A stretch of DNA of 64,000 bases from an uncultured Acidobacteriota bacterium. Lineage in GTDB: Bacteria; Acidobacteriota; UBA6911; RPQK01. A program made the position numbers and the translations under genes. The stretch is from contig CAVUUN010000014.1 of assembly GCA_963744645.1 (NCBI GenBank), positions 450,110 to 514,109 of the forward strand, read 5' to 3'. This document shows positions 1 through 51,601 of the stretch, piece after piece (positions within the stretch are counted from its first letter, which is position 1; each line of letters starts with the position of its first letter). The notes below the pieces were generated by a model. The model was not told the origin of the DNA. It searched no databases and saw nothing but the letters and a program-made list of their open reading frames with translations.

Positions 1-29
1 TTGTACCATGCCAGCACCTTTGCGGGGAG

Positions 30-110
30 TTTCGGGGACATAATACTTAATTCCCCCACCGTTACCGCTACCTTCCCGTCGCAGAGGAATTAAGTTTTGT
101 GTCCCCGAAA
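30..110. repeat. MITE-like element copy 1, AT-rich 25-bp terminal inverted repeats (TTTCGGGGACATAATACTTAATTCC ... GGAATTAAGTTTTGTGTCCCCGAAA)
   Basis: Near-perfect inverted termini read directly in the sequence. The same termini recur at 24699-24780 and 37858-37939, with a degenerate copy at 6579-6665. It is AT-rich against a GC-rich background. Confidence 0.7.
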
Positions 111-148
111 CTCCCTCGTAAGCCGCGCGAATGCGATAATGGTGCGAA

Positions 149-5132: not shown

Positions 5133-6596
5133 ATGACCAAGCAGCGTTCACCCGTTAAGAAACCCTGGGGAGGCAGATTCAAAGATGCCCTTGATCCCCT
5201 GGTGCGCCAATACACCGCGTCTCTGCATCTGGACCGTCAGCTGGCGACCTATGACCTGCGCGGCAGCCGGGCGCACGTTTCCATGCTCGCCAAGCAAGGC
5301 ATAATCTCGGAGAAAGAGGCGGACCGCATCCTGACTGGCCTCAATGTCATCGAGAAAGAAATCGCAAAAGGGGAGTTCCCGTACCGCGAGGATCTCGAAG
5401 ACATCCACATGAACATCGAGACCCGCCTCCAGGAGCTGGTAGGAGAGGCGGGTAAGAAGATCCACACCGGCCGGAGCCGCAATGATCAGGTTGCCCTTGA
5501 TCTGAAGCTGTTCTGCCTGGACGTGGCACGCGACTGGCAGGGGAACCTCCTCGAGCTCCAAACCAGCCTGCGCGACAGGGCCAGGCAGGCCGGGTCCCAG
5601 CTGTTTCCCGGATGGACGCACCTTCAGGCCGCTCAACCTCTTGGCTGGGCGCACTACCTGATGGCGTTCATGGAGATGTTTTGCCGGGATTACCGTCGTC
5701 TGGACTCCTACGCCGAGTTGCACTCAGTCTGCCCGCTGGGGGCCGGCGCGCTATCGGGCAGCACGCTTCCTCTGGATCCCGAAGAGAGCGCCCGCCAGTT
5801 GCACTTCAAGACCTGCTTCGGGAACAGCTACGACGTCGTCGGTGATCGCGATTTCATCCTCGAGCTTCTCCAGATCGCCAGTCAGTCGATGATTCATGCC
5901 AGCCGGCTCGCCGAAGACTTCATTTACATGTCGAGCACGCCGGTCGGCTGGATCGAGTTGCCTGATTCCCTGTGCACGGGAAGCAGCATGATGCCGCAGA
6001 AGAAGAACCCGGATGTGCTCGAGCTGACCCGGGGGAAGACGGCGCTGGTCCTTGGTCACGCGTCCGGGCTTGCGACCCTGTTGAAGGGTCTCCCGTCCTC
6101 ATATAACCGGGATCTGCAACAGGACAAGGAGCACCTGTTCCACGCGGTGGCGACGACGACCGAAACCCTTGGCATTCTCCCTCTGGTAATCGCCGGATTT
6201 CAGATCCGAAGCGACAAGACGGCGTCGGGACTCAAGCAGGGGTTCCTGATGGCCACGGACCTGGCCGAGTACCTTGTCCGGCGCGGCGTGGCTTTTCGCT
6301 CCGCTCACGAAAAAGTAGGGAAACTGGTGGGTCAGTGCCTGGCTGAGGGCATCGGCCTCGAAGACCTTTCTACAGCGAGGATTAAAGAACTGATTCCGGA
6401 GTGTGACGAAGACGTCTCCGAAGTGCTTTCACCAGAGGGGACGCTTAGTCGCCGAACGCATAAAGGCAGCGCCGGTCTCCAGTCGATCAACGACCAACTG
6501 GCTTTCTGGGACCGGTGGATCGACTCCGAAACGCATCGTTTCACGGAGCCCAGTCGCAGCGGAGTCTCAGGGGAGTTTCGGGGAGAGAATATTTAA
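5133..6596 (+). CDS. argH: argininosuccinate lyase
   Basis: WGGRF N-terminus and fumarate-lyase family signature. The C-terminal 11 codons and the stop lie inside the degenerate MITE copy at 6579-6665. Confidence 0.9.
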   Translation: MTKQRSPVKKPWGGRFKDALDPLVRQYTASLHLDRQLATYDLRGSRAHVSMLAKQGIISEKEADRILTGLNVIEKEIAKGEFPYREDLEDIHMNIETRLQELVGEAGKKIHTGRSRNDQVALDLKLFCLDVARDWQGNLLELQTSLRDRARQAGSQLFPGWTHLQAAQPLGWAHYLMAFMEMFCRDYRRLDSYAELHSVCPLGAGALSGSTLPLDPEESARQLHFKTCFGNSYDVVGDRDFILELLQIASQSMIHASRLAEDFIYMSSTPVGWIELPDSLCTGSSMMPQKKNPDVLELTRGKTALVLGHASGLATLLKGLPSSYNRDLQQDKEHLFHAVATTTETLGILPLVIAGFQIRSDKTASGLKQGFLMATDLAEYLVRRGVAFRSAHEKVGKLVGQCLAEGIGLEDLSTARIKELIPECDEDVSEVLSPEGTLSRRTHKGSAGLQSINDQLAFWDRWIDSETHRFTEPSRSGVSGEFRGENI

Positions 6597-6665
6597 TTCC
6601 CACCCCTTTGCCGGGCCGCCCCGTCGAAGGGAATTGAGCGTTTGGTCAGCGAAATCCCCCAAAAC
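6579..6665. repeat. degenerate MITE-like copy overlapping the argH 3' end
   Basis: GGGGAGTTTCGGGGAGAGAATATTTAATTCCC ... GGGAATTGAGCGTTTGG resembles the termini of the 30-110 element. Confidence 0.5.
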
Positions 6666-6690
6666 TCGGGACGAGAAAACCAACAAGACG

Positions 6691-11043: not shown

Positions 11044-11045
11044 GA

Positions 11046-24674: not shown

Positions 24675-24698
24675 CCGGGTACTTTAGCAAAAAGCGAA

Positions 24699-24780
24699 TT
24701 TCGGGGACATAATACTTAATTCCCTCCCCGTTACTGAGCGGTCTCCGTTGGCAAAGGAATTAAGTTTTGTGTCCCCGAAA
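24699..24780. repeat. MITE-like element copy 3, in the mutS upstream region
   Basis: Termini identical to the copies at 30-110 and 37858-37939. Confidence 0.8.
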
Positions 24781-24783
24781 TTC

Positions 24784-24811
24784 GAGACAAGGAGACAGGG
24801 AGACGAAGGAG
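24784..24811. repeat. heptamer array GGAGACA-type (purine strand)
   Basis: gagacaa ggagaca gggagac gaaggag. This is the reverse complement of the unit in the 36566-36665 array. Confidence 0.7.
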
Positions 24812-24955
24812 CCATAGACCGGAGGGCGACGAGGAGGCGGGGAGAAGGAGTCCGACGATGTTCCGGATTCCGGGTGACGCTCCTTTTTGATTTCGCTTGC
24901 CGGGGAGCTCCGACATGCGGATGTTGGACAGGGGGAAAGCGGCGCCGCCGAGTCG

Positions 24956-25190: not shown

Positions 25191-25219
25191 CGACTCGCCC
25201 GCCCCCCGCTTCGGTCAAG

Positions 25220-26530: not shown

Positions 26531-26960
26531 TCATCCTCCTGTCAAAGAGTGGTGCACCCTTGTCCCGCCTTTTGAAAAAGGGCAGTAAAGGTTGGGAAAA
26601 CCAGCCGGCTTACCTGACTGTCAACCGAAGTCATCGAAGACGTGAGTACTCGAACTTTCTGCCCCTCAGGATTGTAGCCGCATTGGCTCGATACGGTTCG
26701 TTCTCGTTACCAGTTGGCTGCGCTCTCAAAGTACACAGAAAAGCTTAGTTCTGCATAATGTTTTTGGTTATTCCAAAAAATCACCGGCAAACGCGGAAGG
26801 GATACGAACGAGCTCATGCATTTGCAGAGAGAACCGAAATAGCGGCGAATAATGGGAACAGTGTGGAATAGTGACGACAGTGATCTTGGCGGCGCCATTA
26901 GCGTTCGCGAGATCGGGCCTTGGTGGTGCATCGCGGTGCAGAATGGTGTAAGATGAGGGC

Positions 26961-27218
26961 ATGCCAAAATCAGAGAAGGTCGTTCGTCAGAGCGTATCCC
27001 TGCCACCCCGCATCGCGAGAGACGTGCGCACCATTGCGCGAACTCGGAATACGAGCGCCAACCGAGTTCTGGTGGAGTTGATCGAAACGGGGCTTCAATG
27101 CAGGGAGGCCGAAAAACAGCGCTTCTTTGGTCTTGCCGATCGACTCGGGCAGACAACCGATCCAAACGAGCGGCAGCGCATTAAAGAAGAACTCGCGCGC
27201 ATGACCTTCGGTGACTGA
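26961..27218 (+). CDS. ribbon-helix-helix (CopG/Arc-like) DNA-binding protein
   Basis: RHH pattern VSLPPRIARDVRTIARTRNTSANRVLVELIETGL. Sits downstream of an AT-rich patch (26700-26960). Confidence 0.55.
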   Translation: MPKSEKVVRQSVSLPPRIARDVRTIARTRNTSANRVLVELIETGLQCREAEKQRFFGLADRLGQTTDPNERQRIKEELARMTFGD

Positions 27219-27370
27219 TGCCCAAGATCCAATGGATCGGTCTTCCCCCTGCTCTTCGCCAGCACCTCTTCGACCGACTGGAGGAACGGCAGATATCGAT
27301 CGAGGACCTGTACAAGCTGAAAGTCTGGAGGGAATCGGAACCTGAGGCACCGGATGGGCCCTTGGTATAA
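27218..27370 (+). CDS. 50-aa ORF translationally coupled (ATGA overlap) to the RHH gene
   Basis: MPKIQWIGLPPALRQHLFDRLEERQISIEDLYKLKVWRESEPEAPDGPLV. Missing from the ORF track because it is under 60 aa. Translated by hand. Confidence 0.3.
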   Translation: MPKIQWIGLPPALRQHLFDRLEERQISIEDLYKLKVWRESEPEAPDGPLV

Positions 27371-27620
27371 GGACTTTGGTTCCTTCAAGATCTGCGGCGA
27401 GGGCAAATTCCCCAAGACCTTTCTGCTGAAAGGGCAAGCAGCGAAAGGAACGCCTCTTTGAGGCTGTGGAGTACTGACCAAGGCTCATATCAATCCTAAG
27501 CCAGTCGATACCGCGACCAGTGGCGGCGGGGCTTGCTCTCGGTCGGAACATGCCAGGGCGCAACACGAATAACCCGAGACAACGAGAGAAGCTGCCTGGA
27601 CACTCGCAAGTCCGGGTACA

Positions 27621-28928
27621 ATGTGCGGCGGAAAACCTGGAATGAGCATTTTCGCCACGCTGACCGCCCTTGGTGGAGCCACGCTTTGCTACGGACGGTT
27701 TTTAAGATCGCAGTTCTGGACCGACCAGGCCCGGGCCAGTTACGTCGAGCGGATGCTTGATCGAACGCTGCGCGATGCTGCCCGCATCCCTTTCTACCGG
27801 GACCGCCTCCGCAGCTGCCAGCCCGGGAATCTCCACGAAGCGCCGATCCTGGCTCGCAGCGACTTGCCGCTCCTTAACAACGAGGTGCGTCGGATGCACC
27901 CTGGCAGACGCCTCCAGGCCGCTCGATCATCCGGTTCGACCGGCATGCCGGTTGAAGTCCTTTTCGACACCCCGCACCAGGTTCACCGTTTTGCCGCCCG
28001 CGCGAGGTACCTTCGCGCGAATGGCTGGAGCCCGCTGAAGAAAAGTGCCTGGATCATCTCCCTGCCCGGGGCGACCCCCGACGGTCAGCTGGTCCGGGCG
28101 TTTCGATCCGTCGGCGTCGGCTTTCTCTCTGTCTTCACGCCGCTTGAAGAGCAACTCGCGTGGCTGCGTCGTTTTCGGCCCGAATACCTCTATACGTACC
28201 CATCTAACCTCGGCGGCCTGCTCGACCTTCTGGAGGAAGAGGGTGGGGAAGCACTCGGTCTGAAAGGATTGTTCTCCGGCGGCGAAATCCTGGACGATGC
28301 AACCCGGAAGCGCGCCCGGGAGATCCTCGGTATCCCGGTCGCCGACAACTACGGGACAACCGAGGTTTTCATCGCGTGGCAGTGCCCTGCCGGCGGCTAC
28401 CATATCAACAGCGAACATGTTCATGTGGAGGTCGTCGATCAGACGGGTCAGCCGGCCCGGGTCGGCGAGGTCGGGCGGGTCCTGGTGACTACCCTCAACA
28501 ACCGGCTGATGCCCCTGGTCCGTTACGAAATCGGGGACTATGCGCAGGTAACGGCTGAACGCTGCCCCTGCGGCCGCACCTTGCCCCTGCTGGGACGTGT
28601 TGTCGGCCGCAGCATAAACCTGTTTCGGTTGCCCTCGGGGCGCGTCATCACTCCCTGGGAACTGGTCGTCCGAATCAAATTCATGCCGGAGTTGAAGCAG
28701 TTTCAGGTTGTCCAGAAAGCCCTTGACCGATGCCTGCTTCGTTATGTATCAAACACCGGTCTGCTGAGTGCGCACAATCGATCGAGCATTGAGCGTGGCT
28801 TCGCGGATGTGCTGGGCCCCGAAGTACGGGTCGATTTCGAACGAGTTGAAAGGATCGAGAGAGCAGCGTCGGGGAAGTTCATGACGGCGTTCTCGGAAGT
28901 GAGCCGCGAGCCGTCCGAAACGCGGTGA
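27621..28928 (+). CDS. PaaK/CapK/F390-synthetase-family adenylate-forming enzyme (copy 1)
   Basis: SSGSTG adenylation motif and PaaK-like length and fold. The ATG at 27642 (MSIFATL) is an alternative start. Confidence 0.75.
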   Translation: MCGGKPGMSIFATLTALGGATLCYGRFLRSQFWTDQARASYVERMLDRTLRDAARIPFYRDRLRSCQPGNLHEAPILARSDLPLLNNEVRRMHPGRRLQAARSSGSTGMPVEVLFDTPHQVHRFAARARYLRANGWSPLKKSAWIISLPGATPDGQLVRAFRSVGVGFLSVFTPLEEQLAWLRRFRPEYLYTYPSNLGGLLDLLEEEGGEALGLKGLFSGGEILDDATRKRAREILGIPVADNYGTTEVFIAWQCPAGGYHINSEHVHVEVVDQTGQPARVGEVGRVLVTTLNNRLMPLVRYEIGDYAQVTAERCPCGRTLPLLGRVVGRSINLFRLPSGRVITPWELVVRIKFMPELKQFQVVQKALDRCLLRYVSNTGLLSAHNRSSIERGFADVLGPEVRVDFERVERIERAASGKFMTAFSEVSREPSETR

Positions 28929-30340
28929 CGGTCCCCGCCTGCGCTGGTCTCGAATTTGGGTCCGTTATGAGTGAACCGATTATTGAGAAAGCCAAGCCAG
29001 GGGATCTCGAGGCCATCCTTGAAGTGATGAAACCCTGGAACATGCATCATGTTCCCTCTCCCGAGATGGAGGAACTGGATCTCGAATGCTTTTATGTAGC
29101 CAGGATCGAAGGGCGAATCGTGGGCGCTTCCGGCTACAAGGTGCTCTCCCAGACGCGAGGGAAGACAACCCTACTGGGTGTCCTGCCCGAGCACTGCAAG
29201 GGCGGGCTCGGACGCCTGCTCCAGGATGTCCGCCTGGAGGCAATGCACCGAATCGGAGTCAAGAAGGTCATCACCAACGCCGATCGCGCGGAGACGATCG
29301 AATGGTACAAAAGGCGGTATGGTTACCGAGAGGTTGGCACGCTTCGCAAAGTGAGCTCCTTCGGTGACCCAGCCGCCGATCATTGGACGACGCTCGAACT
29401 GGACCTCGAGGCGTACTTCCGGAATATAGATCGCCGGCAAAGCGCAACCGAGTACGTCGCCCGCAACGAGCCGCATCCCCTCGCCCCTTACCCGCCGCTC
29501 GTGATCAATGTCTGTCTGACCGGCATGGTGCCGGAGAAAGCCACTGCGCCTTTTGTGCCGCTCCAGGTAGAAGAGATCGTGGGGGACGCGGTTCGAGTCT
29601 TTGATGCGGGCGCGAGAGTTGTCCACGTTCATGCCCGTGACGAGGCGGGCGCCCCCACCTGGGATGCGCGAATCTACGAACGAATTCTGACCGGCATCCG
29701 GCGGGAGCGGCCGGAGCTCGTCTGCTGCGTCTCGACCTCCGGGCGTTTGTGGTCGGATTTCGAGCGAAGGTCGGAAGTCCTGGATCTCACCGGCGCTGCC
29801 AAGCCCGACTTTGCCAGCCTGACACTCGGTTCCTTGAACTTCATGACCGGCCCAAGCGTGAGCTCCCCGGAAATGATTGAGCGGCTGGCCGAGAGGATGA
29901 AGGAAAGGCAGATCCTGCCGGAGTTGGAGGTGTTCGACCTGGGCATGATCGGAATAGCGAAATACCTGGAAAGGAAAGGTCTCATCGGCGGCCGGAAGTC
30001 TTTTAACCTGTTGCTCGGCAGTCTTGGAAGCGTTCCTGCCACGATTGGAAATCTGGCCGCCCTGGTTGCGGCGCTTCCGGATGACTCCTTCTGGTCGGCC
30101 GCGGGTATCGGCGTCTTTCAGCTGCCCATGAATGTCGCCGGCCTCATTGCAGGTGGTGGCGTGAGGATCGGGATCGAAGACGCACTCCACTACGATTACG
30201 CTCGGAAAAAGCCCGCCTCCAACCTCGACCTGGTGTGTCGAATGGTGCGTATCGCCTCCGAAGTTCAGCGGTCGATTGCGACACCTGAAGAGGCCCGAAG
30301 TCTTCTCGGCCTGGGCCGGCAACCGACGGTCGGAAGGTGA
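28925..30340 (+). CDS. fusion protein: N-terminal GNAT acetyltransferase domain plus C-terminal BKACE/DUF849 (3-keto-5-aminohexanoate-cleavage-enzyme-like) domain
   Basis: Residues ~15-165 read as GNAT (...RIVGASGYKV...GLGRLLQ...). Residues ~185-471 match the TIM-barrel BKACE family (PLVINVCLTGMVPEK...VHVHARD...LPELEVFDLGMIG...IGIEDALHYDYARK). The start overlaps the upstream stop. Confidence 0.6.
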   Translation: MTVPACAGLEFGSVMSEPIIEKAKPGDLEAILEVMKPWNMHHVPSPEMEELDLECFYVARIEGRIVGASGYKVLSQTRGKTTLLGVLPEHCKGGLGRLLQDVRLEAMHRIGVKKVITNADRAETIEWYKRRYGYREVGTLRKVSSFGDPAADHWTTLELDLEAYFRNIDRRQSATEYVARNEPHPLAPYPPLVINVCLTGMVPEKATAPFVPLQVEEIVGDAVRVFDAGARVVHVHARDEAGAPTWDARIYERILTGIRRERPELVCCVSTSGRLWSDFERRSEVLDLTGAAKPDFASLTLGSLNFMTGPSVSSPEMIERLAERMKERQILPELEVFDLGMIGIAKYLERKGLIGGRKSFNLLLGSLGSVPATIGNLAALVAALPDDSFWSAAGIGVFQLPMNVAGLIAGGGVRIGIEDALHYDYARKKPASNLDLVCRMVRIASEVQRSIATPEEARSLLGLGRQPTVGR

Positions 30341-30341
30341 G

Positions 30342-31652
30342 ATGCAACCGCTGACTATCCTCGGCGGCGGTCCGGCGGGACTGGCTGTCGCTTACTATGC
30401 ACACCAGGCAGGAATCCCGTTCGTTCTCTACGAACGGTCAGAAAGCGTCGGGGGGCTCTGCCGCACCTTTCGCCTGGGGGAGCACGGATACGACTCCGGC
30501 GCCCACCGCTTTCACGATATCTATCCCGCGATCACCCGAGACGTGCGTCGCCTGCTGGAGCTGCATCCTGTCACTGCTCCCAGTCGCATCTGCAGCAGCG
30601 GGCAGTTTCTCCAGTTCCCGCCGACGCCGCTCAATCTTCTGTTCTCTTCCTCCCCTGCAGAGTGGGCTCGGATCGGCATAGGTCTTTGGCGCGGCCGGAG
30701 GCGGCAAGGGGGCGGGTCCAGCTTCCAGGATTTCGCCGTGTCCCGCTTCGGAGAGAGACTGGCGCGCCGATTCCTCCTGGATTATTCCGCCAAAGTCTGG
30801 GGTTTGCCTGCCGACCAGTTGTCCGTCGATGTTGCAACGCGCCGGCTGAACGGCCTGAATCTGCGAACCCTGGTTTCCGAACTTATTGCCCCGCGAAAGA
30901 GAGCGGGGAACTTGGACGGCCATTTTCTCTATCCGAAGAACGGGTTCGGAGAAATCGCGACGACCCTGGCCGCTGCTCTGCCGCCGGACAGTGTCAAAAC
31001 CGGTCAGGAAGTCACCCGAATCGAGTGCCAGGATGCGGCTGTCCGGCGAATTCATTTTGCCTCCGTTCCGCCGGCCGACGTCCCCGGCCGCATGGTCTCC
31101 ACGCTCCCGCTGAACCTGCTCATTGAGTTCCTTGGGGACGCTGTCTCCGAGACCGTCAGGGAGGCGGCCCGCGCCCTCCGGTTCCGGCACGTGCGGCTGA
31201 TTTTCCTGAGGCTGGGGAAGCCGAGGGTGTCGAACAATGCCTCGATCTACTTCCCGGATCCGAAGATGTGCGTTTCCCGGGTGTGCGAGCCGAAGAATCG
31301 ATCGGCGGCGCTCGCGCCGGCGCAGGAAACGTCGCTTGCGGTGGAAGTGCCCTGTTGCGAAGGAGAGGAATTGTACGTGCTGCCGAACGAAGAGCTGAAG
31401 GAACGGGTCGTATCCGAGGTGAGCGTCACCGGACTAATTCGCCCCTCGGAGGTTCTCGACTGGGCGCACCATTTTCTGGAGAATGCCTATCCGATCTACT
31501 CTCTGCACTACAGGCAACACCAAAAGGTGGTATTGGATGGCCTGGCCTGCCTGACCAATCTCACGACACTCGGCCGGAACGGCAAGTTTTTCTACAGCCA
31601 CTTCCACGATCAGCTGAACATGGGCAAGGAATTCGTGTCCGGATTGAGGTGA
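30342..31652 (+). CDS. FAD-dependent oxidoreductase, UDP-galactopyranose-mutase / amine-oxidase-like
   Basis: GGGPAGLAVAY dinucleotide-binding motif followed by GGLCRT...GAHRFH (compare UGM GPHIFH). An AGGTGA ribosome-binding site 6 nt upstream of the ATG at 30342. Confidence 0.7.
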   Translation: MQPLTILGGGPAGLAVAYYAHQAGIPFVLYERSESVGGLCRTFRLGEHGYDSGAHRFHDIYPAITRDVRRLLELHPVTAPSRICSSGQFLQFPPTPLNLLFSSSPAEWARIGIGLWRGRRRQGGGSSFQDFAVSRFGERLARRFLLDYSAKVWGLPADQLSVDVATRRLNGLNLRTLVSELIAPRKRAGNLDGHFLYPKNGFGEIATTLAAALPPDSVKTGQEVTRIECQDAAVRRIHFASVPPADVPGRMVSTLPLNLLIEFLGDAVSETVREAARALRFRHVRLIFLRLGKPRVSNNASIYFPDPKMCVSRVCEPKNRSAALAPAQETSLAVEVPCCEGEELYVLPNEELKERVVSEVSVTGLIRPSEVLDWAHHFLENAYPIYSLHYRQHQKVVLDGLACLTNLTTLGRNGKFFYSHFHDQLNMGKEFVSGLR

Positions 31653-31719
31653 GCTGGGGCGGCGAGGGTGTCGAAAAGCCTGGCGGCGAAGCTCGCTGAA
31701 CAAACAGCAAGGCGGGCGC

Positions 31720-31770
31720 GTGAGCGAGCTCGAAGGGCAGGGAAGGTTTGAGTCCCGCCTTAGGCGGCGA
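31720..31770. repeat. family-D repeat solo copy
   Basis: GTGAGCGAGCTCGAAGGGCAGGGAAGGTTTGAGTCCCGCCTTAGGCGGCG is ~85% identical to 17057-17107. Confidence 0.65.
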
Positions 31771-31805
31771 ACCGGAAGCGACATCGTTTGGCCTGTCCAC
31801 CTCGC

Positions 31806-33272
31806 CTACCGCCTTCGGACAAAGCTGGGAAACTTGCCGGACTCGGCCGCGGGGATCGCTTCCACGATCTCCACTTCCACCCGGGTCCCCGGTCCCAATA
31901 CTCTGCCGGTAGCCTCGACAAAAGCCCTGGAAAGCTCGGATGGAGAGGCCCCGGCCGCCGGGACGATCTTCCAGAGCAGCAACCCGGGAGGTGTATAGAC
32001 GATCTGAGCCCGGACGGTGAGCCCGATTTGCGCCGCCAGCTGGTGACGAAGCGTCAGCGCGGAAATCACCGTCCCGTCCGCGCGCGGGATGATCTGGCTG
32101 ACCCGTCCCTGCAATTCCCGGAGGACCGGCAGGGAACGGCCGCATCCGCACGGTTCGGTCGCAATGACACCCAAGTCCCCGAGCCGGTAGTTGAGCAATA
32201 CCATCGCCCGGTTGTGGAGATTGGACACGACCAGCTCTCCGACTTCTCCCGGTTTCACGGCCCTTTGGAGCGCGGACGTCTCGTCCGCCCGGTCGGACGA
32301 CGCTTCGGGAGCCCATCCTGCCCGCCCGCCCGCGAACTCCAGCGACTCGTCTCGGGTCGGATTGCGACTCTGCCGCAGTGCGGCGCCTATGCCCGGGTCG
32401 ATCAGACGAACGGCACACAGGTCTACGTTCAGATGAAATCCGCGGCGCCGTTCGCATTGAAACCCCAGTCGACCGGTTTCGGTGGTTTGATACGTCGAGT
32501 AGACAGTGCACCCTTGTTCCTCCATCGTCCGGCGCACCTCGGCCGAGAGAACATCGCCTCCATAGACCCAGACCCGCGGCAGGAAGATTCTCTTGCCGCT
32601 GTCGGAAATTGTCCTGAAGAGAACCTCTGCGAAGGAACCGTAGGAGAACACAATCTCCGGACGAACCTCGTTGATGCGCTGTGCGATTTCGTCGATCGGG
32701 GTATCGGGCGGCAGCTCAATCCGGTGAATGGCCCGCTGGGGCGCGAACATATGCGCTTCTACAAACCGTCTCACGCGCCCGGCGCCGTAGCCCATGATGT
32801 GGAGCTGCCTTTGCCCCCAGTTTTTGCCCGCGATCGTGGCCAGAATCACCCGGTCGCGCTCGGCGTGGGCAACCTTCGCGAGCACCGCCGAGTGATCCCA
32901 GTAGACCCGCAGTGCGAAACCCTGGGACGAACCGGATGTCTTGAGGCAGAGACGCCTGCTGTCCGGGTACAGGGAAGAACAGAACGTTTCTGGATCCTGC
33001 GCCACGTCGGACAGATCGATCAGTGGCAGCTTGGCGAGGTCGTCCGCTGTCCTGAAGTCCGAAGGTCGCAGTCCCCTCTCAGCCATTGCATTCCGATAGA
33101 ACGGGACCGTCTCCCAAGCGTGGCGGATGATTCTCCGCAACCGCCATCGCTGCAGGCGCTCGATCGTTTCCGGCTTTAGAAAGGGAACGCGCCGCTCGAC
33201 CAATGCGTAGGCGCCTACCCAGGCGGTGTTGCCGGCGCGCACCAGCGCAGAGACGGGGCCAGACTCGGACAT
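31806..33272 (-). CDS. PaaK/CapK/F390-synthetase-family adenylate-forming enzyme (copy 2)
   Basis: TSGSSQG adenylation motif and PaaK-like architecture. A divergent paralogue of 27621-28928. Confidence 0.75.
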   Translation of the reverse strand: MSESGPVSALVRAGNTAWVGAYALVERRVPFLKPETIERLQRWRLRRIIRHAWETVPFYRNAMAERGLRPSDFRTADDLAKLPLIDLSDVAQDPETFCSSLYPDSRRLCLKTSGSSQGFALRVYWDHSAVLAKVAHAERDRVILATIAGKNWGQRQLHIMGYGAGRVRRFVEAHMFAPQRAIHRIELPPDTPIDEIAQRINEVRPEIVFSYGSFAEVLFRTISDSGKRIFLPRVWVYGGDVLSAEVRRTMEEQGCTVYSTYQTTETGRLGFQCERRRGFHLNVDLCAVRLIDPGIGAALRQSRNPTRDESLEFAGGRAGWAPEASSDRADETSALQRAVKPGEVGELVVSNLHNRAMVLLNYRLGDLGVIATEPCGCGRSLPVLRELQGRVSQIIPRADGTVISALTLRHQLAAQIGLTVRAQIVYTPPGLLLWKIVPAAGASPSELSRAFVEATGRVLGPGTRVEVEIVEAIPAAESGKFPSFVRRR

Positions 33273-33380
33273 TCGTGTTCGCTCCCGACCTAATTCTGGG
33301 TCTTCAGCCCTCGGTCATCAATCCGAAAATCGGGAACACGGCCCAGCGGGGCGGCGGAGCAGTGCTAAACTGTCGTCGCT

Positions 33381-34663
33381 TTGAAGCTCACACTGGATCC
33401 GGCAACTTCGCGCGCTTGCGCCCCAGCCACCAAAGGACTGGTTGCAATCGCCGGGGTTTATTTCATTTCCCTCTTCCTGCAGCTGCCGATATCGGACGCC
33501 CTGCTGTCCGGGATCCCGCATTGGAGGATCGGCAAGGGTGCGGTTGCCCCACCCATGGTACTCTCCGGCGATTCCCCCCATTACCTGGTCCTTGTCAACA
33601 GCATCATCGAGGATGGGGATCTTGATCTGGCCAACAATTACAGCCAGGCCGCGGCTGGCGGCTGGCAAGCAGGGGCGCGTTTCCGGGGAGTGGCCCTGGA
33701 CCACCATACCGAGGTCGATAGCGAGGGAAGGGAACGGTCCCTGCATTCGATTTTCCTTCCATTGCTCCTGTCGCTCATCGCCTGGCCATTTTCCGGCACT
33801 CGATGGGTTGAGCCCGTCTGTATCTGCCTGACGATGGGGGCGACCGTCCTCGCTCTCTGGTTGTTCGCGAGAAGAAGCGGGAAGGCTTTTGGCTGGGTGG
33901 TCGTACTTGCCGTCGCGACGCCTCTCTGGTGTTACTCCAGGGACATCTGGACCGAGCCATGGCTGACCGCCGCCTGGATTGGTCTTCTTTTCGTGCAGAG
34001 TCTTCCGGTCCTCTTCGCCGTGGCACTTGCAGGGACACTGATCAAGTACAACTTCGTCCTGGTCCCGCTCAGCATGGCAGTCGTTTTCTGGCTGAGACGC
34101 GACCGGCGCCGGGCTTCGTGCTTGCCGGAGCGGGTATCCTCGGAGTATTGATCGCCGTGGCCGCGGTTCAGTACTTGTTCCGCGACGTGGACCATTTCAA
34201 CCTCTTTCACCTCGGCGGTCATTACCACGGCGCCGACGCCACGCTGCGTCAGAGAATCGTGCCCTTGAAATTTCTTCAACCGACGGGGCTGGTTGGCATG
34301 CTTTTTGACCCGCAAGCAGGTCTCCTGCCGTTCTTCCCGTTTCTGGCCTGGGGCCTCTGGCAAATCCGAAAGGGCGGCTATCTGTTCGTTCCCGTCATTG
34401 TCTTCTTCCTTGTTCTTGGCGCCTACCCGGGATGGACTGGAGGAGCCGGATTTTCGTCGCGGTACCTGGTGCCGGTCCTTCCGGCCCTGGTCATCGCCGT
34501 CGCTGATGCAAAACCCCGCAGCTACTTCTTCGGGCTGGCATTGCTTTACGGTGCATTCTGGGGTGCGCTCGCCGGCATAGGGCCGGCGTATGTCTACGAA
34601 CGCACGCCTGTCCAGATCACTGCCGCTATCCTCAGGCGGCTGTCTGCGCTGGCTGGTATCTGA
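33381..34663 (+). pseudogene. polytopic membrane protein (possible GT-C-fold glycosyltransferase or glycan polymerase-like), interrupted by a frameshift or split into two genes
   Basis: The TM-rich ORF 33381-34151 ends in RRDRRRAS... The TM-rich sequence resumes in another frame (ORF 33929-34663, ...PAPGFVLAGAGILGVLIAVA...). The switch lies at ~34090-34115. Confidence 0.45.
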
Positions 34664-34707
34664 CGGGGCTGTTACTGAGGACGCCTGTCGGCTGGAGGCT
34701 GATTGTT

Positions 34708-36558
34708 GTGTGTGGAATCGCAGGAATTGTTCATTGTCACCTGCCTCCTGATCAGTTGAGGGCCGCGCTTGTCCGCATGGAGCAGTCACTTATCCACCGG
34801 GGGCCCGACGAAGGCAACGTCGTGGTATTCCCCGATGGCTCGGGCGGATTTGCTGCCCGTCGCCTCAGTCTCCTCGACCTGCGGAATGGAAGCCAACCGA
34901 TACCCAACGAGGACGGCACGGTCCACGTCCTGCACAACGGCGAGATTTACAATCACCGGGGTCTCAGGGAGGAGCTCCAGGCGCGAGGCCATTGCCTCCG
35001 GAGCCGGACCGACAGCGAGGTTATCGCGCATCTCTACGAAGACGACGGTGTTGAGTGCCTCCATCGCCTGCATGGGATGTTCGCGCTGGCCTTGTACGAT
35101 GCTCGAAAGCGGCAGCTTCTACTCGCCAGGGACGGGCCCGGCATGAAGCCGCTGTACTTTGCCAACACCCGAGCAGGATTTCTCTTCGCCTCGGAGGCCA
35201 GGGCCCTGTTTGCCTCTGGCCTGATCCGTCCTGAACCGGAGCTCCCTGCCATAGACACCTACCTTGCTATCGGTTACGTGCCCGCCCCGGCGTGCGCTTT
35301 TCGAAATGTCGGGAAGCTTAGGGCCGGCCATTACCTGCTGGTAGAAAAGGAAAAAATGCGGGACGCGGCCTTCTCGCGCTACGAGTATCGCCAGCCGAGT
35401 CCTGCGAAGAGCGACGCGGAGTACGGGGCCGAGCTGGAGGCGCTTCTTTCCGGCGCGGTTCGCTCTCATCTTGCGGCCGATGTCCCCGTGGGGGCCCTGT
35501 TAAGCGGAGGTTGGGACTCGTCTCTGATAGCGACCCTGGCAGCCCGGAGCATGGGAGCACCTCTGAAGACTTTCTCCATTGTCTTTCCTGAGGACCCTGA
35601 GGCGGACGAAAGCCGCTTCTCGCGCGCGATGGCGGAATCGCTCGGCAGCGATCACCACGAGATCGAGTACCGAAATTCCCTGCTGCCGGCACTTATCCCG
35701 AAAATGTCCCGTGACCTGGAGGAACCGTGTGCAAATGTTCCAACGGGGGTCGTTTCTCTGCTTGCTTCCCTGGCCGGCGCCCACGTGAAGTCCGTAGTCA
35801 GCGGCGAAGGAGCCGATGAATTGTTTGGCGGCTACAAATTCTTTCGCATTCGTTCCCCGTACCTCGCTCGAGCCGTTCTCCCCAGGTCTCTCGCCCGTTT
35901 CGCGGCGACCTGGCTCCCGCATCCGCTCGTCCGGTGCGCCTTGAGAGTCGCGGCGGCCCCGGACGAAAGGACTGGAGATCCGGAGTGGTTTCGAATGTTC
36001 TCTCCCGAGGAGAAACGGATGGTCCTGAAACCGGAGTTTCAGGTGGACGGACCGGATGTCTCCCCCACGCTGGTCGAACGCGAAACCCTCGTAACCTGCG
36101 TCGACAGGCTCCAGCGCCGCCTGGCCTTCGATCTTACCGGTCGTTTGGCCGACGGCATTCTCTTCATGGCCGACAAGGTCGCGATGTCGCACTCTCTCGA
36201 AGTGCGGATGCCTTTCCTGGACCGTTCTGTCGTGGAATTTGCCATGCGGCTCCCGTCCCATCTGAAGGTGAACGGGAGGCAAGGGAAGGTCATCCTGAGA
36301 CCACTCGCGAGCCGGCTCCTGCCGCCCGCTATCGCCTCGCGGCGCAAGAAAGGACTCGCCTATCCGGACCGAGCCTGGTCCAAGCCACCGCTTGACCGCT
36401 ACGCCCGCGACCTGCTCCTCGGAGGCGGCCGTAACGGCCCATTCAATACCCGGTACCTGGAACAGAACCTTCCGCGCTGGCAGCGGGCCGCTTGGAAGGG
36501 AGAACGACGAATCGCCGGGCTGGTTTTCCTCCAGAGCTGGTGGAACGAGTTCTGCTGA
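34708..36558 (+). CDS. asparagine synthetase-family glutamine amidotransferase (AsnB/WbpS/beta-lactam-synthetase-like)
   Basis: MCGIAG N-terminal nucleophile, SGGWDSS PP-loop, 616 aa. Confidence 0.85.
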   Translation: MCGIAGIVHCHLPPDQLRAALVRMEQSLIHRGPDEGNVVVFPDGSGGFAARRLSLLDLRNGSQPIPNEDGTVHVLHNGEIYNHRGLREELQARGHCLRSRTDSEVIAHLYEDDGVECLHRLHGMFALALYDARKRQLLLARDGPGMKPLYFANTRAGFLFASEARALFASGLIRPEPELPAIDTYLAIGYVPAPACAFRNVGKLRAGHYLLVEKEKMRDAAFSRYEYRQPSPAKSDAEYGAELEALLSGAVRSHLAADVPVGALLSGGWDSSLIATLAARSMGAPLKTFSIVFPEDPEADESRFSRAMAESLGSDHHEIEYRNSLLPALIPKMSRDLEEPCANVPTGVVSLLASLAGAHVKSVVSGEGADELFGGYKFFRIRSPYLARAVLPRSLARFAATWLPHPLVRCALRVAAAPDERTGDPEWFRMFSPEEKRMVLKPEFQVDGPDVSPTLVERETLVTCVDRLQRRLAFDLTGRLADGILFMADKVAMSHSLEVRMPFLDRSVVEFAMRLPSHLKVNGRQGKVILRPLASRLLPPAIASRRKKGLAYPDRAWSKPPLDRYARDLLLGGGRNGPFNTRYLEQNLPRWQRAAWKGERRIAGLVFLQSWWNEFC

Positions 36559-36565
36559 CTCACCC

Positions 36566-36665
36566 TTAGTCTCCCCGTTTTGGTCTCCCCGTCTCCTAGT
36601 CTCGTCTCCTTGTCTCCTGTCTCTGTCTCCCCCTCCTCCTTCTCCCCGTCTCCCCGTCTCTCCCT
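36566..36665. repeat. pyrimidine-rich heptamer array (GTCTCCY-type), inverse of 24784-24811
   Basis: tagtctccccgttttggtctccccgtctcctagtctcgtctccttgtctcctgtctctgtctccccctcctccttctccccgtctccccgtctc read directly. Confidence 0.75.
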
Positions 36666-36709
36666 TCGTATGTTATTGTCTTCATTCAGCGGAAGGAGTA
36701 CTGGCGCCC

Positions 36710-37402
36710 ATGTACATTCTGGCAATTGACACGGCGACGAATGCCGGCGGGGTTGCGCTCGGTCGTAACAATGAGCTCGTCGCCCTCTGGATGTCCAAAT
36801 CGCCTCTCCGCTATTCCGAAAGTCTCATCTCCTGGGTCGATTTTGTTCTGGCGCAGGAACGGCTCCAGCTTTCCGACATCGGTTGTTTTGCGGTCACGGT
36901 CGGACCCGGGTCTTTTACGGGGCTGCGGATCGGACTGGCGGCCGTCAAGGCTTTCAGCCAGGTTCTCGGTCGCCCGGTCTTTGGCGTTTCGACACTGCAC
37001 GCCCTGGCGCACCGTTTCCGCCATTCCGGGCAGCACATCGTGCCTCTGATCGACGCCCGCCGCCAGCAGGTTTACGCGGCCGTGTACCGCGCCGACGAAA
37101 CCGGTTGTTCGCTTGTCGGCGAGGAGGCGGTTGCCCGGCCGGATCAGTGGCTGGACACGCTTCCGCGCGACCGCCAATATGTGTTCGTAGGTGATGGTGC
37201 CGTCTTGTATAAGTCGACGATCTCGGCTCTCCTCCCTGGCCATCGTCTCCTCGAGTCCGACAATTCAGTTCTTCGGGAATTGGTTGATCTGGCTCAACTC
37301 TGGTCGGCAGCCGGCAATCAGGGGCAGGGATTCAACCTGAAGGGAAACTACCTGCGGCCGCCCGACGCCAAGCTGCCACATCCGCGCGGGGACCATGAGT
37401 AA
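36710..37402 (+). CDS. tsaB: tRNA threonylcarbamoyladenosine biosynthesis protein TsaB (YeaZ)
   Basis: MYILAIDTATNAGGVAL N-terminus and ~230 aa. A GGAAGGAG ribosome-binding site upstream. Followed by rimI, as is usual. Confidence 0.85.
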   Translation: MYILAIDTATNAGGVALGRNNELVALWMSKSPLRYSESLISWVDFVLAQERLQLSDIGCFAVTVGPGSFTGLRIGLAAVKAFSQVLGRPVFGVSTLHALAHRFRHSGQHIVPLIDARRQQVYAAVYRADETGCSLVGEEAVARPDQWLDTLPRDRQYVFVGDGAVLYKSTISALLPGHRLLESDNSVLRELVDLAQLWSAAGNQGQGFNLKGNYLRPPDAKLPHPRGDHE

Positions 37403-37871
37403 CCGGCTGCCACCCGGGGATCTGGTCATACGCGCGGCACGGTCGACGGACATCCACGCGATCTGCGAGCTTGACCGCATCACTCTCCTGAGCAAGTGGA
37501 GCCCCGAGATGTACAGGACCCTGATGACCGATGGCCGGTCCGAGCTCCGGGTGGCGTCCATGGGGGAGCGTCTGATCGGATTTCACGCTGTCACCAAGGT
37601 TCACCCGGACATTGAATTGCTCAAGATCGGCGTCACACCTGAATTCCAGGGAACGGGCGTCGGAATGGCGCTGCTGGACGATGTGCTCGGGCAAGCACGA
37701 TCCCATGGTTTCTCGAGTTGTTTTCTTGAGGTGAGAGCGAGCAACAACCGGGCCATTCGCTTCTACCGCAAAAGGGGCTTTGAAGTGGTCGGGGTGCGTC
37801 GGGCCTATTACCGGGAACCGATCGAGGACGCGCTCGTCATGCGCAAGGACATCGGCGTTTCGGGGACATAA
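37395..37871 (+). CDS. rimI: ribosomal-protein-alanine N-acetyltransferase (GNAT)
   Basis: GNAT motif (IGV...QGTGVGMALL) in the tsaB-rimI arrangement. The last 5 codons and the TAA lie inside the MITE terminal inverted repeat. Confidence 0.75.
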   Translation: MSNRLPPGDLVIRAARSTDIHAICELDRITLLSKWSPEMYRTLMTDGRSELRVASMGERLIGFHAVTKVHPDIELLKIGVTPEFQGTGVGMALLDDVLGQARSHGFSSCFLEVRASNNRAIRFYRKRGFEVVGVRRAYYREPIEDALVMRKDIGVSGT

Positions 37872-37939
37872 TACTTAATTCCCTCCCCGCGACCGAGCTG
37901 TGGCCGTTGGCCAAGGAATTAAGTTTTGTGTCCCCGAAA
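37858..37939. repeat. MITE-like element copy 4, overlapping the rimI stop codon
   Basis: Termini identical to the other copies. A partial right-half duplicate lies at 37992-38031. Confidence 0.8.
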
Positions 37940-38161
37940 CTCATTCCACTGGATGCTTAGATCTCTCGTCCCAGCAGCGCATCCAACCAACCGTTGGCCA
38001 AGGAATTAAGTTTTGTGTCCCCGAAACTCCTCCACGCGCGGGCGGCACTCCTTGCTGGATACCCCCGCCCATCCCTCCCCGGCAACCGCCGCCGTTTCTT
38101 TTGACCTATAATGTTCGATGCCTTCAACCGGTAGAGTAGACTCAAGGGACGGCCGCCGGTC

Positions 38162-46593: not shown

Positions 46594-48119
<1,526 letters not shown>

Positions 48120-48345
48120 CGGGAAACCGAAAGAAAACAACGTTCGATAACAATCGGGTCTTGCAGGCTCGCCTCTGTCTGGTTATCCAAGGTCGGATAA
48201 AAAACACCCGGCGCCTTTTTTTTCGAAGAAGAAGGGCGCCGGGTTCGATCTTGACTGGTCTTTGACAATCTGGAAGAGAGAAAACAAAAGGGCAAGAGAA
48301 ATGCCACAAGGCAGGCCTGGGGATTTTGGGCGACTGAAAAACCCG

Positions 48346-51308
<2,963 letters not shown>

Positions 51309-51385
51309 GGATTTTTCAGTGGCTCAAAAACCAAGGCCACCTGTGGCACGCCTTTAGCCCCGAGTTTCTTCTTCCAGATGTTACG

Positions 51386-51464: not shown

Positions 51465-51473
51465 TTAAAGGAT

Positions 51474-51590: not shown

Positions 51591-51601
51591 ATATAAACGA
51601 A

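Follow-up and report, generated by a model that had tools for sequence, protein, structure and literature searches.

Hairpin repeats in the window

The window analyzed here, a 64,000-nt stretch of a contig from an uncultured Acidobacteriota bacterium, contains three full copies of a short hairpin-forming repeat, one decayed copy at the 3' end of argH and one solo right half. Each full copy consists of a left (A) arm, an interior and a right (B) arm, and copy 3 lies at the 3' end of rimI. The features, by position, are:

25..115, plus strand: full copy 1 (A arm 30-54, interior 55-85, B arm 86-110, flanks GGGAG/CTCCC)
5133..6596, plus strand: argH, argininosuccinate lyase, 487 aa, with its stop codon TAA (6594-6596) inside the decayed A arm
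6561..6667, plus strand: decayed copy at the argH 3' end (A arm 6576-6600, interior 6601-6629, B arm 6630-6654)
24695..24784, plus strand: full copy 2 (A arm 24699-24723, interior 24724-24755, B arm 24756-24780, flanks CGAA/TTCG)
37395..37871, plus strand: rimI, 158 aa, with its stop codon TAA (37869-37871) inside the A arm of copy 3
37856..37942, plus strand: full copy 3 at the rimI 3' end (A arm 37858-37882, interior 37883-37914, B arm 37915-37939)
37991..38030, plus strand: solo right half (11 nt of interior, B arm and ACTC(C))

A pattern search of the window placed the left arm TTTCGGGGACATAATACTTAATTCC at 30, 24699 and 37858 and the right arm GGAATTAAGTTTTGTGTCCCCGAAA at 86, 24756, 37915 and 38002, each with 0 mismatches, and found a left-arm match with 3 mismatches starting at 6576. 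Arm matches appeared in 0 of 100 dinucleotide-preserving shuffles, and none of the copies is expected by chance. The left and right arms are inverted repeats of each other with 2 non-complementary positions. A first-pass annotation had already placed full copies with shared inverted terminal arms at 30-110, 24699-24780 and 37858-37939, and exact pattern matches that are absent from the shuffles bear this out; its ends were too short, as the palindrome extends 3-6 nt further (GGGAG/CTCCC at copy 1, CGAAT/ATTCG at copy 2). Its two incomplete copies, given as 6579-6665 and 37992-38031, were also found, with ends now at 6576-6654 and 37991-38029.

Copy 1 is located upstream of the window's first gene; its 30-nt arms are 93% complementary, and as DNA it folds with -26.8 kcal/mol (z -8.6). 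The fold of copy 2 reached z -9.5 and that of copy 3 z -6.0, while the decayed copy reached only z -2.3. In the latter, the A arm has 3 mismatches and the B arm (6630-6654) is strongly decayed; its outer parts are a partial outer duplicate GGAGTCTCAGGGGAG (6561-6575) and an outer complement CCCCAAAACTC (6657-6667). The solo right half lies 48 nt downstream of copy 3, and its positions 37991-38029 are 100% identical over 39 nt to 37904-37942; half-element duplications of a similar kind were also present at four loci of other genomes (L015, L043, L011 and L057). Copy 2 lies upstream of mutS, 25 nt from its start codon (24674, minus strand). mutS has an apparent frameshift at 23235-23365; there, and around 6550 at the argH end, indel errors of the assembly may play a part. 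An element in the mutS promoter region had been annotated before as copy 3; the copy in question is copy 2, and a promoter scan of the mutS strand gave no support for a promoter there. Downstream of the stem the sequence reads AAACTCC or AAATTCG. An intrinsic terminator was considered and rejected, as no T-run follows the stem and no terminator-like site was found around copy 2.

The 3' ends of argH and rimI

ArgH ends in ...GVSGEFRGENI*, and its last seven codons and stop (EFRGENI*) come from the decayed A arm. The whole tail had previously been ascribed to the degenerate copy; this holds for EFRGENI*, whereas GVSG is encoded by GGAGTCTCAGGG (6561-6572), which belongs to the partial outer duplicate just outside the decayed copy. 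At rimI, GGC GTT TCG GGG ACA TAA encodes GVSGT*, and VSGT, the final four codons, are supplied together with the stop by the A arm of copy 3, so that the earlier reading of this ending as part of the left terminal repeat was correct.

The C-termini were compared with those of relatives that lack the element. A 91%-identical ArgH (L073) has its own TAG stop and ends in ...TEPQA*, without an element, and the ancestral argH stop was probably lost via a TAG>CAG change and a 1-nt deletion. A second assembly (P0124) has the argH tail of the window too. In L074 and L077, RimI relatives that lack the element, the tail is a different one, homologous between the two, while in two others (L075 and L076) the element occupies the same rimI position. 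Where relatives end in ...VSGT* or ...SGEFRGHDI*, the element is present. Because element-free relatives end argH and rimI differently, C-terminal capture at both genes, as the first-pass annotation had proposed, is real. Presence or absence of the element at the two sites differs among relatives. At least five other genes in a related Acidobacteriota MAG also stop inside an A arm, and five were verified with Pfam.

Small remnants of the form TTTCGGGG...CCCCGAAA were observed as well, for example GGAGTTTTGGGcgtggtgCCCCGA in L073; they are candidate excision footprints or preferred targets.

Conservation, covariation and folding

Among 61 doublets (two inverted arms with their spacer), pairwise identity was 97% in the arms, 51% in the interiors and 33% in the flanks; the doublets were gathered by arm similarity, which inflates the apparent conservation of the arms. 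Divergence of the interiors so far beyond that of the arms is not explained by simple recent copying from one master and counts against the origin proposed below; selection would have to keep the arms at each site, or they would have to be renewed.

Stem pairs covaried. Columns 9-101 were GC in 32 and AU in 23 of the 61 doublets, with G or A in column 9 pairing with C or T in column 101, and columns 22-88 were AU in 54 and GC in 6; columns 8-102 were likewise complementary. A T-G pair at columns 21-89 was kept in 61/61 copies and is a wobble on the A-to-B strand only. Flank complementarity reached 4.1 nt, compared with 2.0 nt when flanks were re-paired, and 0 of 2000 re-pairings reached the observed value. 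No target-site duplication was present in the 61-doublet alignment; the flanks are inverted complements and not direct repeats. The compensatory changes noticed earlier in the internal segment do exist, but they are located in the arms and outer flanks. The consensus arm does not pair with itself (0.0 kcal/mol), and self-pairing of the acidobacterial arms is weak (-3.1 and -4.6 kcal/mol).

The earlier suggestion of a structured RNA would make the copies small structured RNA genes or cis-regulatory RNAs with a conserved stem and a variable loop, acting in trans or in cis. The strong hairpin (z -6 to -9.5), the covariation of the stem and a weak tendency of the interior to pair with itself (mean z -0.66, p = 3e-5) are all in line with it. 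RNAalifold on the 61 doublets recovered the stem pairs, but no consensus pairing in the interior. Both DNA strands of the element fold equally well, copies overlap coding sequence and occur in both orientations, no promoter/terminator pair brackets them, and the arms form the termini of a transposase unit (see below). No Rfam family matched either: at the gathering threshold only rRNAs passed in the whole window, the best match of the element at E <= 5 was an insect flavivirus element (28.5 bits vs. a cut-off of 41), and a tRNA/tmRNA scan found none. We therefore consider an RNA family very improbable.

The arms flank a Y1/HUH transposase gene in other genomes

At 11 independent loci in other genomes, a Y1/HUH transposase gene of about 223 aa has the 24-nt arm TTCGGGGACAYAAWACTTAATTCC as its flanking terminal inverted repeat (TIR). 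At one of them (L059), an ORF bracketed by two arms matched Pfam Y1_Tnp with 35.5 bits (cut-off 23) and NCBIfam REP_Tyr_transpos with 63.9 bits, which is below the cut-off of 80. At three further loci with different genomic contexts (L064, L066 and L070), the arm is located about 31 nt before the ATG of a homologue of this gene, designated TIRYT, and an inverted arm overlaps the stop codon or directly follows it. An inverted arm at the gene 3' end is thus common to all four, in L064 as a variant. A metagenome was also scanned for QRGN codons preceded by an A-type arm; there were 7 matches, and 7/7 were TIRYT homologues with 52-78% identity.

The L059 protein (223 aa) contains PNHVHMI, YLWQGRF and YVELNPVRA. 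The TIRYT class corresponds to TnpA_REP subclass 2.1 (Quentin et al. 2018) and to RAYT group 1 (Bertels et al. 2017), and the motifs NHVH, WQ and YVELNP of the L059-type protein fit subclass 2.1. Its best solved relative is the TnpA_REP of E. coli (4ER8), and the HUH and Tyr motifs of the two align; the second-best, ISDra2 TnpA, showed weak similarity only (E about 0.01). Members of subclass 2.1 are said to have a helix-turn-helix (HTH) tail, although this tail is described as heterogeneous by Quentin et al. The L059-type protein has a tail of about 90 aa to which no model matched; at Pfam E <= 0.01 only Y1_Tnp was found, and no HTH-like tail (Bac_DnaA_C, HTH_23 or HTH_28).

By tblastn, the TIRYT gene was absent from the 64-kb window and from 62/63 genome loci, L059 being the only one with it. 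L059 belongs to the alphaproteobacterial MAG SHWA01, which also contains doublets (L007, L035 and L051). TIRYT genes with arms were all found in other lineages, with arm variants ending in TAATTGAC or similar, and the exact A+B arm pair of the acidobacterial doublets accompanied none of the arm-flanked TIRYT genes seen. We know of no biochemical work on any TIRYT.

These loci also bear on the nature of the family. The copies had been described as MITE-like, and as a dispersed non-autonomous family with terminal inverted repeats they are. A classical MITE would be an internally deleted DDE insertion sequence moved by cut-and-paste and bordered by target-site duplications. Such an origin would suit the small size and large number of the copies, their terminal inverted repeats of about 25 nt, and the occurrence of solo halves and of copies nested in one another. 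Yet the flanking bases are complementary instead of identical, without a direct repeat, the genes found between such arms were all Y1/HUH with no DDE gene seen, and the interiors are not conserved, unlike those of young MITE families. An origin of this kind thus has hardly any probability left. Ends of the Tn3 or Tn7 type, attC sites of integrons and dif/Xer sites were rejected too; their core motifs do not fit the arm, and the arm-transposase link explains the data.

Distribution of the arm

The exact 24-nt arm pattern was found in at least 63 genome stretches. About 47 of these come from one related Acidobacteriota MAG, where the arms mostly form inverted pairs at a distance of 31-35 nt. This MAG contains at least 58 elements. 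The same arm occurs nearly unchanged in MAGs of at least five phylum-level groups, and neighboring copies were found in both orientations. A search with the arm sequence in the full text of papers returned only unrelated primer matches. For a plasmid vehicle, PLSDB was searched with the TIRYT protein (tblastn) and gave no match at E <= 1e-30; at E <= 1e-5 only relatives with 27-45% identity and at most 69% query coverage appeared, and blastn of a perfect doublet against PLSDB plasmids gave nothing.

One copy in another genome (L052:487-567) occupies the same intergenic position as copy 1 of the window, in the same orientation. The two may be orthologous by descent, but their interiors lend this no support: other copies are at least as close to the window copy as the L052 copy is. 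The shared position may instead reflect re-insertion at a preferred site.

The arms might be kept mainly for a function in the host, with transposition rare or extinct. The hairpin would then act on the transcript, by protection of the mRNA 3' end or ribosome stalling, or serve as a protein-binding palindrome, as proposed for REPs. REPs stabilize the mRNA upstream of them, and where a REP follows a stop codon within about 15 nt, ribosome stalling lowers expression. The higher identity of arms than of interiors (97% vs. 51%) would suit such a role, as would the T-G pair kept in every copy. Elements were also found at the same gene-end or intergenic sites in genomes whose neighboring genes are 72-77% identical, with arms intact and, in one such copy, a compensated A-T to G-C change. 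Neighboring genes on the A side read toward the element in 37 cases and away from it in 17, and gene pairs around elements were convergent in 15 cases vs. divergent in 5. On the other hand, arm conservation is inflated by sampling, the hairpin lacks a following T-run and (around copy 2) a terminator-like site, no credible Rfam match was obtained and both strands fold equally well as DNA. Adjacent copies lie in both orientations, at 11 loci the arm accompanies a transposase gene, and copies such as that of argH can be left to decay. As the main explanation of the arms, host function is therefore unlikely, but it is compatible with the transposase-based origin set out below and does not exclude it.

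Proposed origin of the elements

The arm is the TIR of TIRYT genes, it is present in many copies in a related genome, and its hairpin is kept by covariation. We consider it probable (roughly 0.75) that the elements of the window are non-autonomous TIR doublets of a TIRtron, spread by a TIRYT acting in trans, as REPINs are thought to be. A TIRtron is a unit of about 750 bp, composed of the TIRYT gene for a Y1/HUH protein of about 223 aa and two inverted arms of about 25-30 nt. The elements of the window lack the transposase gene, and their arms, about 31-35 nt apart, are predicted to form a long hairpin on each strand. A TIRYT encoded elsewhere in the genome would recognize this hairpin in single-stranded DNA, and would cut and rejoin without target duplication, like the enzymes of IS200/IS605 and REP/RAYT; such action would spread the doublets. 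Since no cognate transposase was found in the 64-kb window searched, we can only infer mobilization in trans, a single-stranded intermediate and a cognate TIRYT in the window's genome.

Most doublets lie just downstream of genes, where they land or persist. The arm contains TAA in two of its three frames, so that an insertion clipping the last codons of a gene would be tolerated and would leave a short arm-encoded tail (...VSGT* or ...FRGHNT*).

A bolder version, which we regard as doubtful, is that one TIRYT and the near-invariant 24-nt arm form a single system, spread horizontally across at least five phylum-level groups; the acidobacterial doublets would be long-lived, REPIN-like residents with arms under selection for the hairpin, and would routinely form the 3' ends of housekeeping genes, from the last codons through the stop codon to the stem. 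RAYT group 1 / subclass 2.1 is regarded as insertion-sequence-like and REP-free, and this version, if true, would extend to it a persistent association of the REPIN-RAYT type.

The doublets provide a sequence-defined case in which hairpin repeats of an HUH transposase probably remodel gene ends in a poorly studied phylum, and they bear on whether REPIN-like persistence occurs outside Gammaproteobacteria. Where unrelated proteins carry an odd tail like ...VSGT* or ...FRGHNT*, annotators can now recognize it as repeat-derived, and the repeats explain assembly breaks, as many contigs end inside them. With an arm that is nearly invariant in distant phyla and a small, highly conserved transposase next to it, this is a handy system for testing DNA recognition by TIRYTs.

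Comparison with known systems

By their sequence features the elements appear to belong to the already described TIRYT/TIRtron class. TIRYT TIRs carry GGGGWSAS (Di Nocera, De Gregorio & Rocco 2013, BMC Genomics 14:522), and TIR families occur as singles, dimers and clusters, also in an acidobacterium, Koribacter versatilis (PMC3733652; PMC6006769). The arms here read GGGGACAC or GGGGACAT; GGGGACAC fits GGGGWSAS exactly, and GGGGACAT, a variant of the A arm, departs from it in the final position. As in TIRtrons, the Y1/HUH gene is flanked by long inverted repeats and not by REPs, the gene's 3' end and the downstream TIR overlap, the protein has the motifs NHVH / WQ / Y[IV]ELNP with a length (223 aa in L059) close to the 225-240 aa or so of the class, and TIR copies are scattered as singles, dimers and clusters. 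Unlike the described members, the L059-type protein has no Pfam-detected HTH tail, and the K. versatilis TIRYT in the supplement of Di Nocera et al. (aba 1552) is of another sequence type. The arm sequence is not printed in that 2013 supplement. A near-identical 24-nt arm across phyla, at least 58 copies in one MAG and systematic stop capture are not described in the accessible part of the 2013 paper.

In REPINs, the ends are conserved, the spacer is less so, and compensatory changes occur (PMC3116915). The doublets resemble them in their two conserved inverted units with a spacer of fixed length, a hairpin in single-stranded DNA and compensatory changes, as well as in leaving solo halves as remnants, in lying mostly downstream of genes, in a Y1/HUH gene with the same flanks and in the lack of target duplication. 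Unlike in REPINs and REPs, a single arm does not form a small palindrome, and neither of its ends bears a GTAG or CGTC tag; moreover, the arm is common to several phyla, whereas REPs are lineage-specific. The enzyme also differs from that of REPIN/RAYT systems, as it is of the group 1 / subclass 2.1 type, treated in the REPIN literature as not REPIN-associated, and matched the REP_Tyr_transpos model only below its cut-off.

TIRYTs and the IS200/IS605 enzymes have their catalytic fold in common, as well as the HUH and Tyr motifs, and a single-stranded, hairpin-guided mechanism without target duplication would be expected of both; however, IS200/IS605 elements end in differing subterminal hairpins and lack long terminal inverted repeats.

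Rickettsia palindromic elements, Correia elements and ERIC are small palindromic repeats that join an ORF or provide its stop while the gene stays intact, and the Rickettsia elements insert in frame inside genes. The elements described here have no sequence or enzyme kinship with these families and, unlike the Rickettsia elements, replace the last few codons only.

Copies of the element in the window

A pattern search of the window located the left arm TTTCGGGGACATAATACTTAATTCC without mismatch at 30, 24699 and 37858, and its partner arm GGAATTAAGTTTTGTGTCCCCGAAA exactly at 86, 24756, 37915 and 38002; an arm version with three mismatches begins at 6576. No arm match appeared in any shuffle of the window sequence. 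The five pieces share one orientation:

30-110, + strand, full copy 1, 81-82 nt, both arms exact
6576-6654, + strand, decayed copy, arm with 3 mismatches
24699-24780, + strand, full copy 2, 81-82 nt, both arms exact
37858-37939, + strand, full copy 3, 81-82 nt, both arms exact
37991-38029, + strand, solo right half, 39-nt exact duplicate of 37904-37942

Apart from one T-G and one T-T position, the arms are paired along 25 nt, and pairing runs 3-6 nt beyond them, with GGGAG/CTCCC flanking copy 1 and CGAAT/ATTCG flanking copy 2. For the full copies a long hairpin is predicted for either strand as single-stranded DNA (z -6 to -9.5), while the hairpin of the decayed copy is far poorer (z -2.3).

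The first-pass annotation had placed copy 3 in the promoter region of mutS; the element that precedes the mutS start codon (24674, minus strand) by 25 nt is in fact copy 2. The mutS gene itself (22178-24674, minus strand) consists of two ORFs rather than one (23235-24674 and 22178-23365); they overlap by about 130 nt, and the split reflects either a frameshift or an assembly indel. Indel errors in the window are therefore possible, a caveat for single-base differences elsewhere in it. At L074, a locus retrieved for comparison, mutS and the tsaB-rimI operon are adjacent and divergent (L074:1-1508); in the window about 12 kb separates them (24674-36700), and copy 2 lies with other repeats at the mutS edge of this segment. 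Either a rearrangement or a repeat-bounded insertion may account for the separation.

Among the other repeats, a second family of long, imperfect palindromes (1291-1433, 24965-25178, 59869-59992 and perhaps 3257-3427) has arms of 40-73 nt, 79-100% complementary, with the common motif TTCCAGCGAAG..GCGG; one member adjoins copy 2 upstream of mutS. A repeat class separate from the 82-bp elements consists of 7-nt units (GGAATGC/GGAATGG, AACTGCG, GAGTTCT) in tandem arrays at 1216-1287, 11038-11193, 14078-14186, 51377-51468 and 59791-59862. Several form pairs of inverted arrays, which would fold into long hairpins. One of the arrays lies in the 23S-5S spacer; the rRNA operon, 16S-23S-5S, is complete (46595-51591). 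No tRNA genes were found in the 16S-23S spacer or in the whole 64 kb.

Capture of gene ends

As the first-pass annotation had proposed, the stop codons of argH (5133-6596) and rimI (37395-37871) both lie within a left arm. The ArgH of a metagenome locus (P0122/L073), 91% identical to that of the window, ends in ...RFTEPQA at its own TAG, with no element and 42 nt from the stop to argF. Compared with L073, the window argH has CAG in place of TAG and lacks one base upstream, so that its frame continues through GGAGTCTCAGGG (GVSG), enters the decayed A arm and ends at the arm's TAA. The same tail recurs in a second assembly (P0124); as the stop is also lost by substitution, argH reads into the element even if the indel is a sequencing error.

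For rimI, five close relatives were compared. L075 (72% identity) has an A arm where the window has one, and its RimI ends there in ...AVSGT; that of L076 (86%) ends in ...ISGEFRGHDI, within a nested partial copy plus arm. The L074 (71%) and L077 (77%) proteins, without the element, have a longer common tail (...KDTNEHE and ...KDANERE). Element-free relatives of both genes thus end differently, and the same terminal residues are found only where the element is present; judged by sequence comparison, the claimed C-terminal capture is real.

Two element-free sites carry other structures. The argH-argF spacer of L073 (2150-2195) contains GGAGTTTTGGGcgtggtgCCCCGA, a small hairpin that resembles only the outermost arm bases and may mark either a past excision or a favoured target. 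The longer RimI tail of L074 (1985-2065) and L077 (1400-1500) overlaps a different hairpin, GGACACGAA...TTCGTGTCC, also with GGACAC/GTGTCC, perhaps an older palindrome at this site or an unrelated one.

Gene-end capture is a general effect, beyond argH and rimI. At least nineteen ORFs of at least 150 codons have their stop inside elements. Five of them in one Acidobacteriota MAG (CAYQYP01) were verified by Pfam (nicotinate phosphoribosyltransferase, 4Fe-4S protein, Wzt-type ABC ATPase, acyl-CoA dehydrogenase and metallophosphoesterase), with the ends ...GVSGT, ...ISGT, ...FRGHNT, ...GVSGEFRGHNT and ...RVSGT. Two of the three reading frames of the A arm meet a TAA within 21 nt, which explains why insertions at gene ends cost few residues. 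In a rough neighbour analysis, elements were mostly downstream of genes: 15 flanking gene pairs were convergent versus 5 divergent, and the neighbour on the A side read towards the element 37 times and away from it 17 times.

Anatomy of the doublet family

We collected at least 62 doublets and at least 13 solo arms from the window together with the MAG loci. Each doublet consists of one A arm (..ACATAATAC..) and one B arm (..ACACAAAAC..), each one base off the cross-phylum consensus ACACAATAC, around an interior of fixed length with the loose consensus CCAnnCCGTTAGCG...CCGTnAGCAAA. In 61 aligned copies mean pairwise identity was 97% for the arms, 51% for the interior and 33% for the flanks. 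Conserved arms around a fixed-length, loosely conserved interior indicate that the whole doublet is the inherited unit.

The first-pass annotation had read partly compensatory changes in the interior as consistent with a structured RNA. Compensation was indeed found, but in the arms and flanks: RNAalifold pairing of the 61 copies is limited to the arms and two flank positions, with covariation at columns 9-101 (GC 32 / AU 23), 8-102 (AU 40 / GC 6 / CG 3) and 22-88 (AU 54 / GC 6). Four doublets (L002, L012, L023, L043) share one compensated double change (CATGATACT with CACGAAACT), and L016 carries a different compensated change (ACTCAATT with AATTGAGT). For the interior RNAalifold gave no consensus fold across these copies, and its self-pairing tendency is weak (mean z -0.66, p = 3e-5). 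With no Rfam match, both orientations in use and overlap with coding sequence, a structured RNA gene or riboswitch was rejected; so was an intrinsic terminator, as there is no T-run.

Perfect complementarity extends past the conserved arm by a mean of 4.1 nt versus 2.0 nt for randomly re-paired flanks (0 of 2000 re-pairings reach 4.1). Left and right flanks are complementary, not identical, which means that there is no target-site duplication. Without such a duplication or a DDE parent, the earlier label "MITE-like" does not hold in its classical sense and a classical MITE was rejected; the elements are instead dimers of a terminal inverted repeat (TIR) of the kind described below.

Many copies are nested between partial copies of the outermost bases (TTTCGGGG ... 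CCCCGAAA), and half-element duplications occur, among them the solo half at 37991-38029. Composite copies (L011:2930-3071, L057:6026-6171, L015:7221-7347, L043:1649-1829) are of two kinds. In tandem junctions, seen among the MAG loci as GGGAATTA(A) followed by (GA)GTTTCGGGG, a copy whose right arm lacks its outermost ~20 nt runs straight into the start of the next; the others are duplicated half elements. The composites may be traces of a joining reaction.

Association of the arm with a tyrosine transposase gene

A scan with TTCGGGGACAYAAWACTTAATTCC, covering one genome per species and giving lower bounds throughout, returned at least 63 stretches. About 47 came from CAYQYP01, mostly as inverted pairs 31-35 nt apart, and represent the same element. 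The remaining 16 among the matches listed belong to 11 other MAGs, labelled in their record titles as Alphaproteobacteria (4), Gammaproteobacteria, Actinomycetes, Elusimicrobia (2), Planctomycetaceae (2.6-Mb contig), "PVC group" and one unclassified bacterium. As several of these matches lie on contigs of 150 kb to 2.6 Mb, mis-binning is an unlikely reason for the spread. In most of the 16 the arm is TTCGGGGACACAATACTTAATTCC; the partner, where present, is an identical or near-identical inverted copy, and the interiors (2 to about 700 nt) are unrelated.

At L059 the arms enclose a single ORF of 223 aa, with the N-terminus MARLARVVVPGVPHHVTQRGN and the motifs LMPNHVHMIM and YVELNPVRA. The protein matches Pfam Y1_Tnp above the cut-off and scores 63.9 against the NCBIfam REP-associated tyrosine transposase model, below its cut-off of 80. 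Its closest solved relative is E. coli TnpA_REP (4ER8), with which the HUH and Tyr motifs align. At least 8000 homologues were found at E < 1e-20, the best 120 all being 75-100% identical and 218-247 aa long. Three homologues in other genomic contexts (L064, L066, L070) repeat the layout, with an arm variant ~31 nt ahead of the ATG and, inverted, a second arm that overlaps or directly follows the stop, and all seven metagenome matches with an acidobacterial A-type arm followed 70-100 nt on by QRGN codons encode homologues of the L059 protein. The association therefore holds in 11 independent loci. The transposase stop lies within the downstream TIR at L059:2560-2590, L066:3671-3694 and L070:3660-3700 (GGG AAT TAA G, as at L059, or GAG ATA A), so that the arm also provides the stop codon of its own gene.

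On two AT-rich metagenome contigs (L081:960-1010, L078:1000-1050) TTGACA directly follows the arm upstream of the transposase gene, with a TAATAAT-like box at promoter-like spacing reading into it; the downstream inverted arm is absent or decayed there.

Proposed mobilization and constraint

Neither the window nor the retrieved MAG loci yielded a gene for such a TIR-flanked Y1 transposase (TIRYT). The best-supported reading draws on IS200/IS605 TnpA and E. coli TnpA_REP as analogues: a TIRYT would mobilize the doublets in trans, or would have done so in the past, by acting on their hairpin in single-stranded DNA. The arm is a TIRYT TIR, the hairpin is constrained, target duplication is absent, and the elements are numerous and differ in presence among relatives. 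That a TIRYT uses the doublets of the window's genome as substrate, and through a single-stranded intermediate, we infer; the nested TTTCGGGG remnants would be footprints or preferred targets. A plasmid-borne vehicle was rejected, as searches of PLSDB turned up neither a close TIRYT nor a doublet.

Arm conservation exceeds interior conservation by a large gap, and arms are intact at shared positions in genomes with no more than 72-77% identity between the genes next to them; both are only partly accounted for. The copies at window 30-110 and L052:487-567, one such pair, show a compensated A-T to G-C change. Three explanations are possible: selection may act on the arms at each site, re-insertion at favoured sites may renew them, or collecting copies by arm similarity may bias the sample. 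The elements may also have a host role of the REP type, in which they would protect mRNA 3' ends or, as stems close to a stop codon, stall ribosomes; such a role would be compatible with mobilization.

Comparison with TIRtrons and REPINs

Di Nocera et al. (2013; PMC3733652) coined the term TIRYT for Y1 transposases with long flanking inverted repeats and TIRtron for the whole unit. As described there, the TIRs share the motif GGGGWSAS, overlap the 3' end of the gene and form moderately abundant genomic families of singles, dimers and clusters, one of them in the acidobacterium Koribacter versatilis. GGGGACAC of our arm fits this motif. Since the arm is a TIR of this published class, the window elements belong to a TIRtron family, as dimers of its TIR. 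According to Quentin et al. (2018; PMC6006769), TIRYT corresponds to TnpA_REP subclass 2.1 and to RAYT group 1 of Bertels et al. (2017), with the motifs NHVH / W[EQ] / YIELNP and a median of 238 aa. The L059-type protein fits key motifs and length. Pfam detects in it none of the HTH-like tail ascribed to the subclass.

REPINs are described as hairpins whose conserved ends enclose a spacer of lower conservation and which show compensatory changes (PMC3116915). The doublets of the window and the MAG share all of these traits, and functionally the window elements are the counterpart of REPINs. The element class thus belongs to one already described, REPIN-like TIR dimers of TIRtrons; the novelty may lie in this family, which is abundant in Acidobacteriota and whose arm hardly varies between phyla and regularly serves to end genes.
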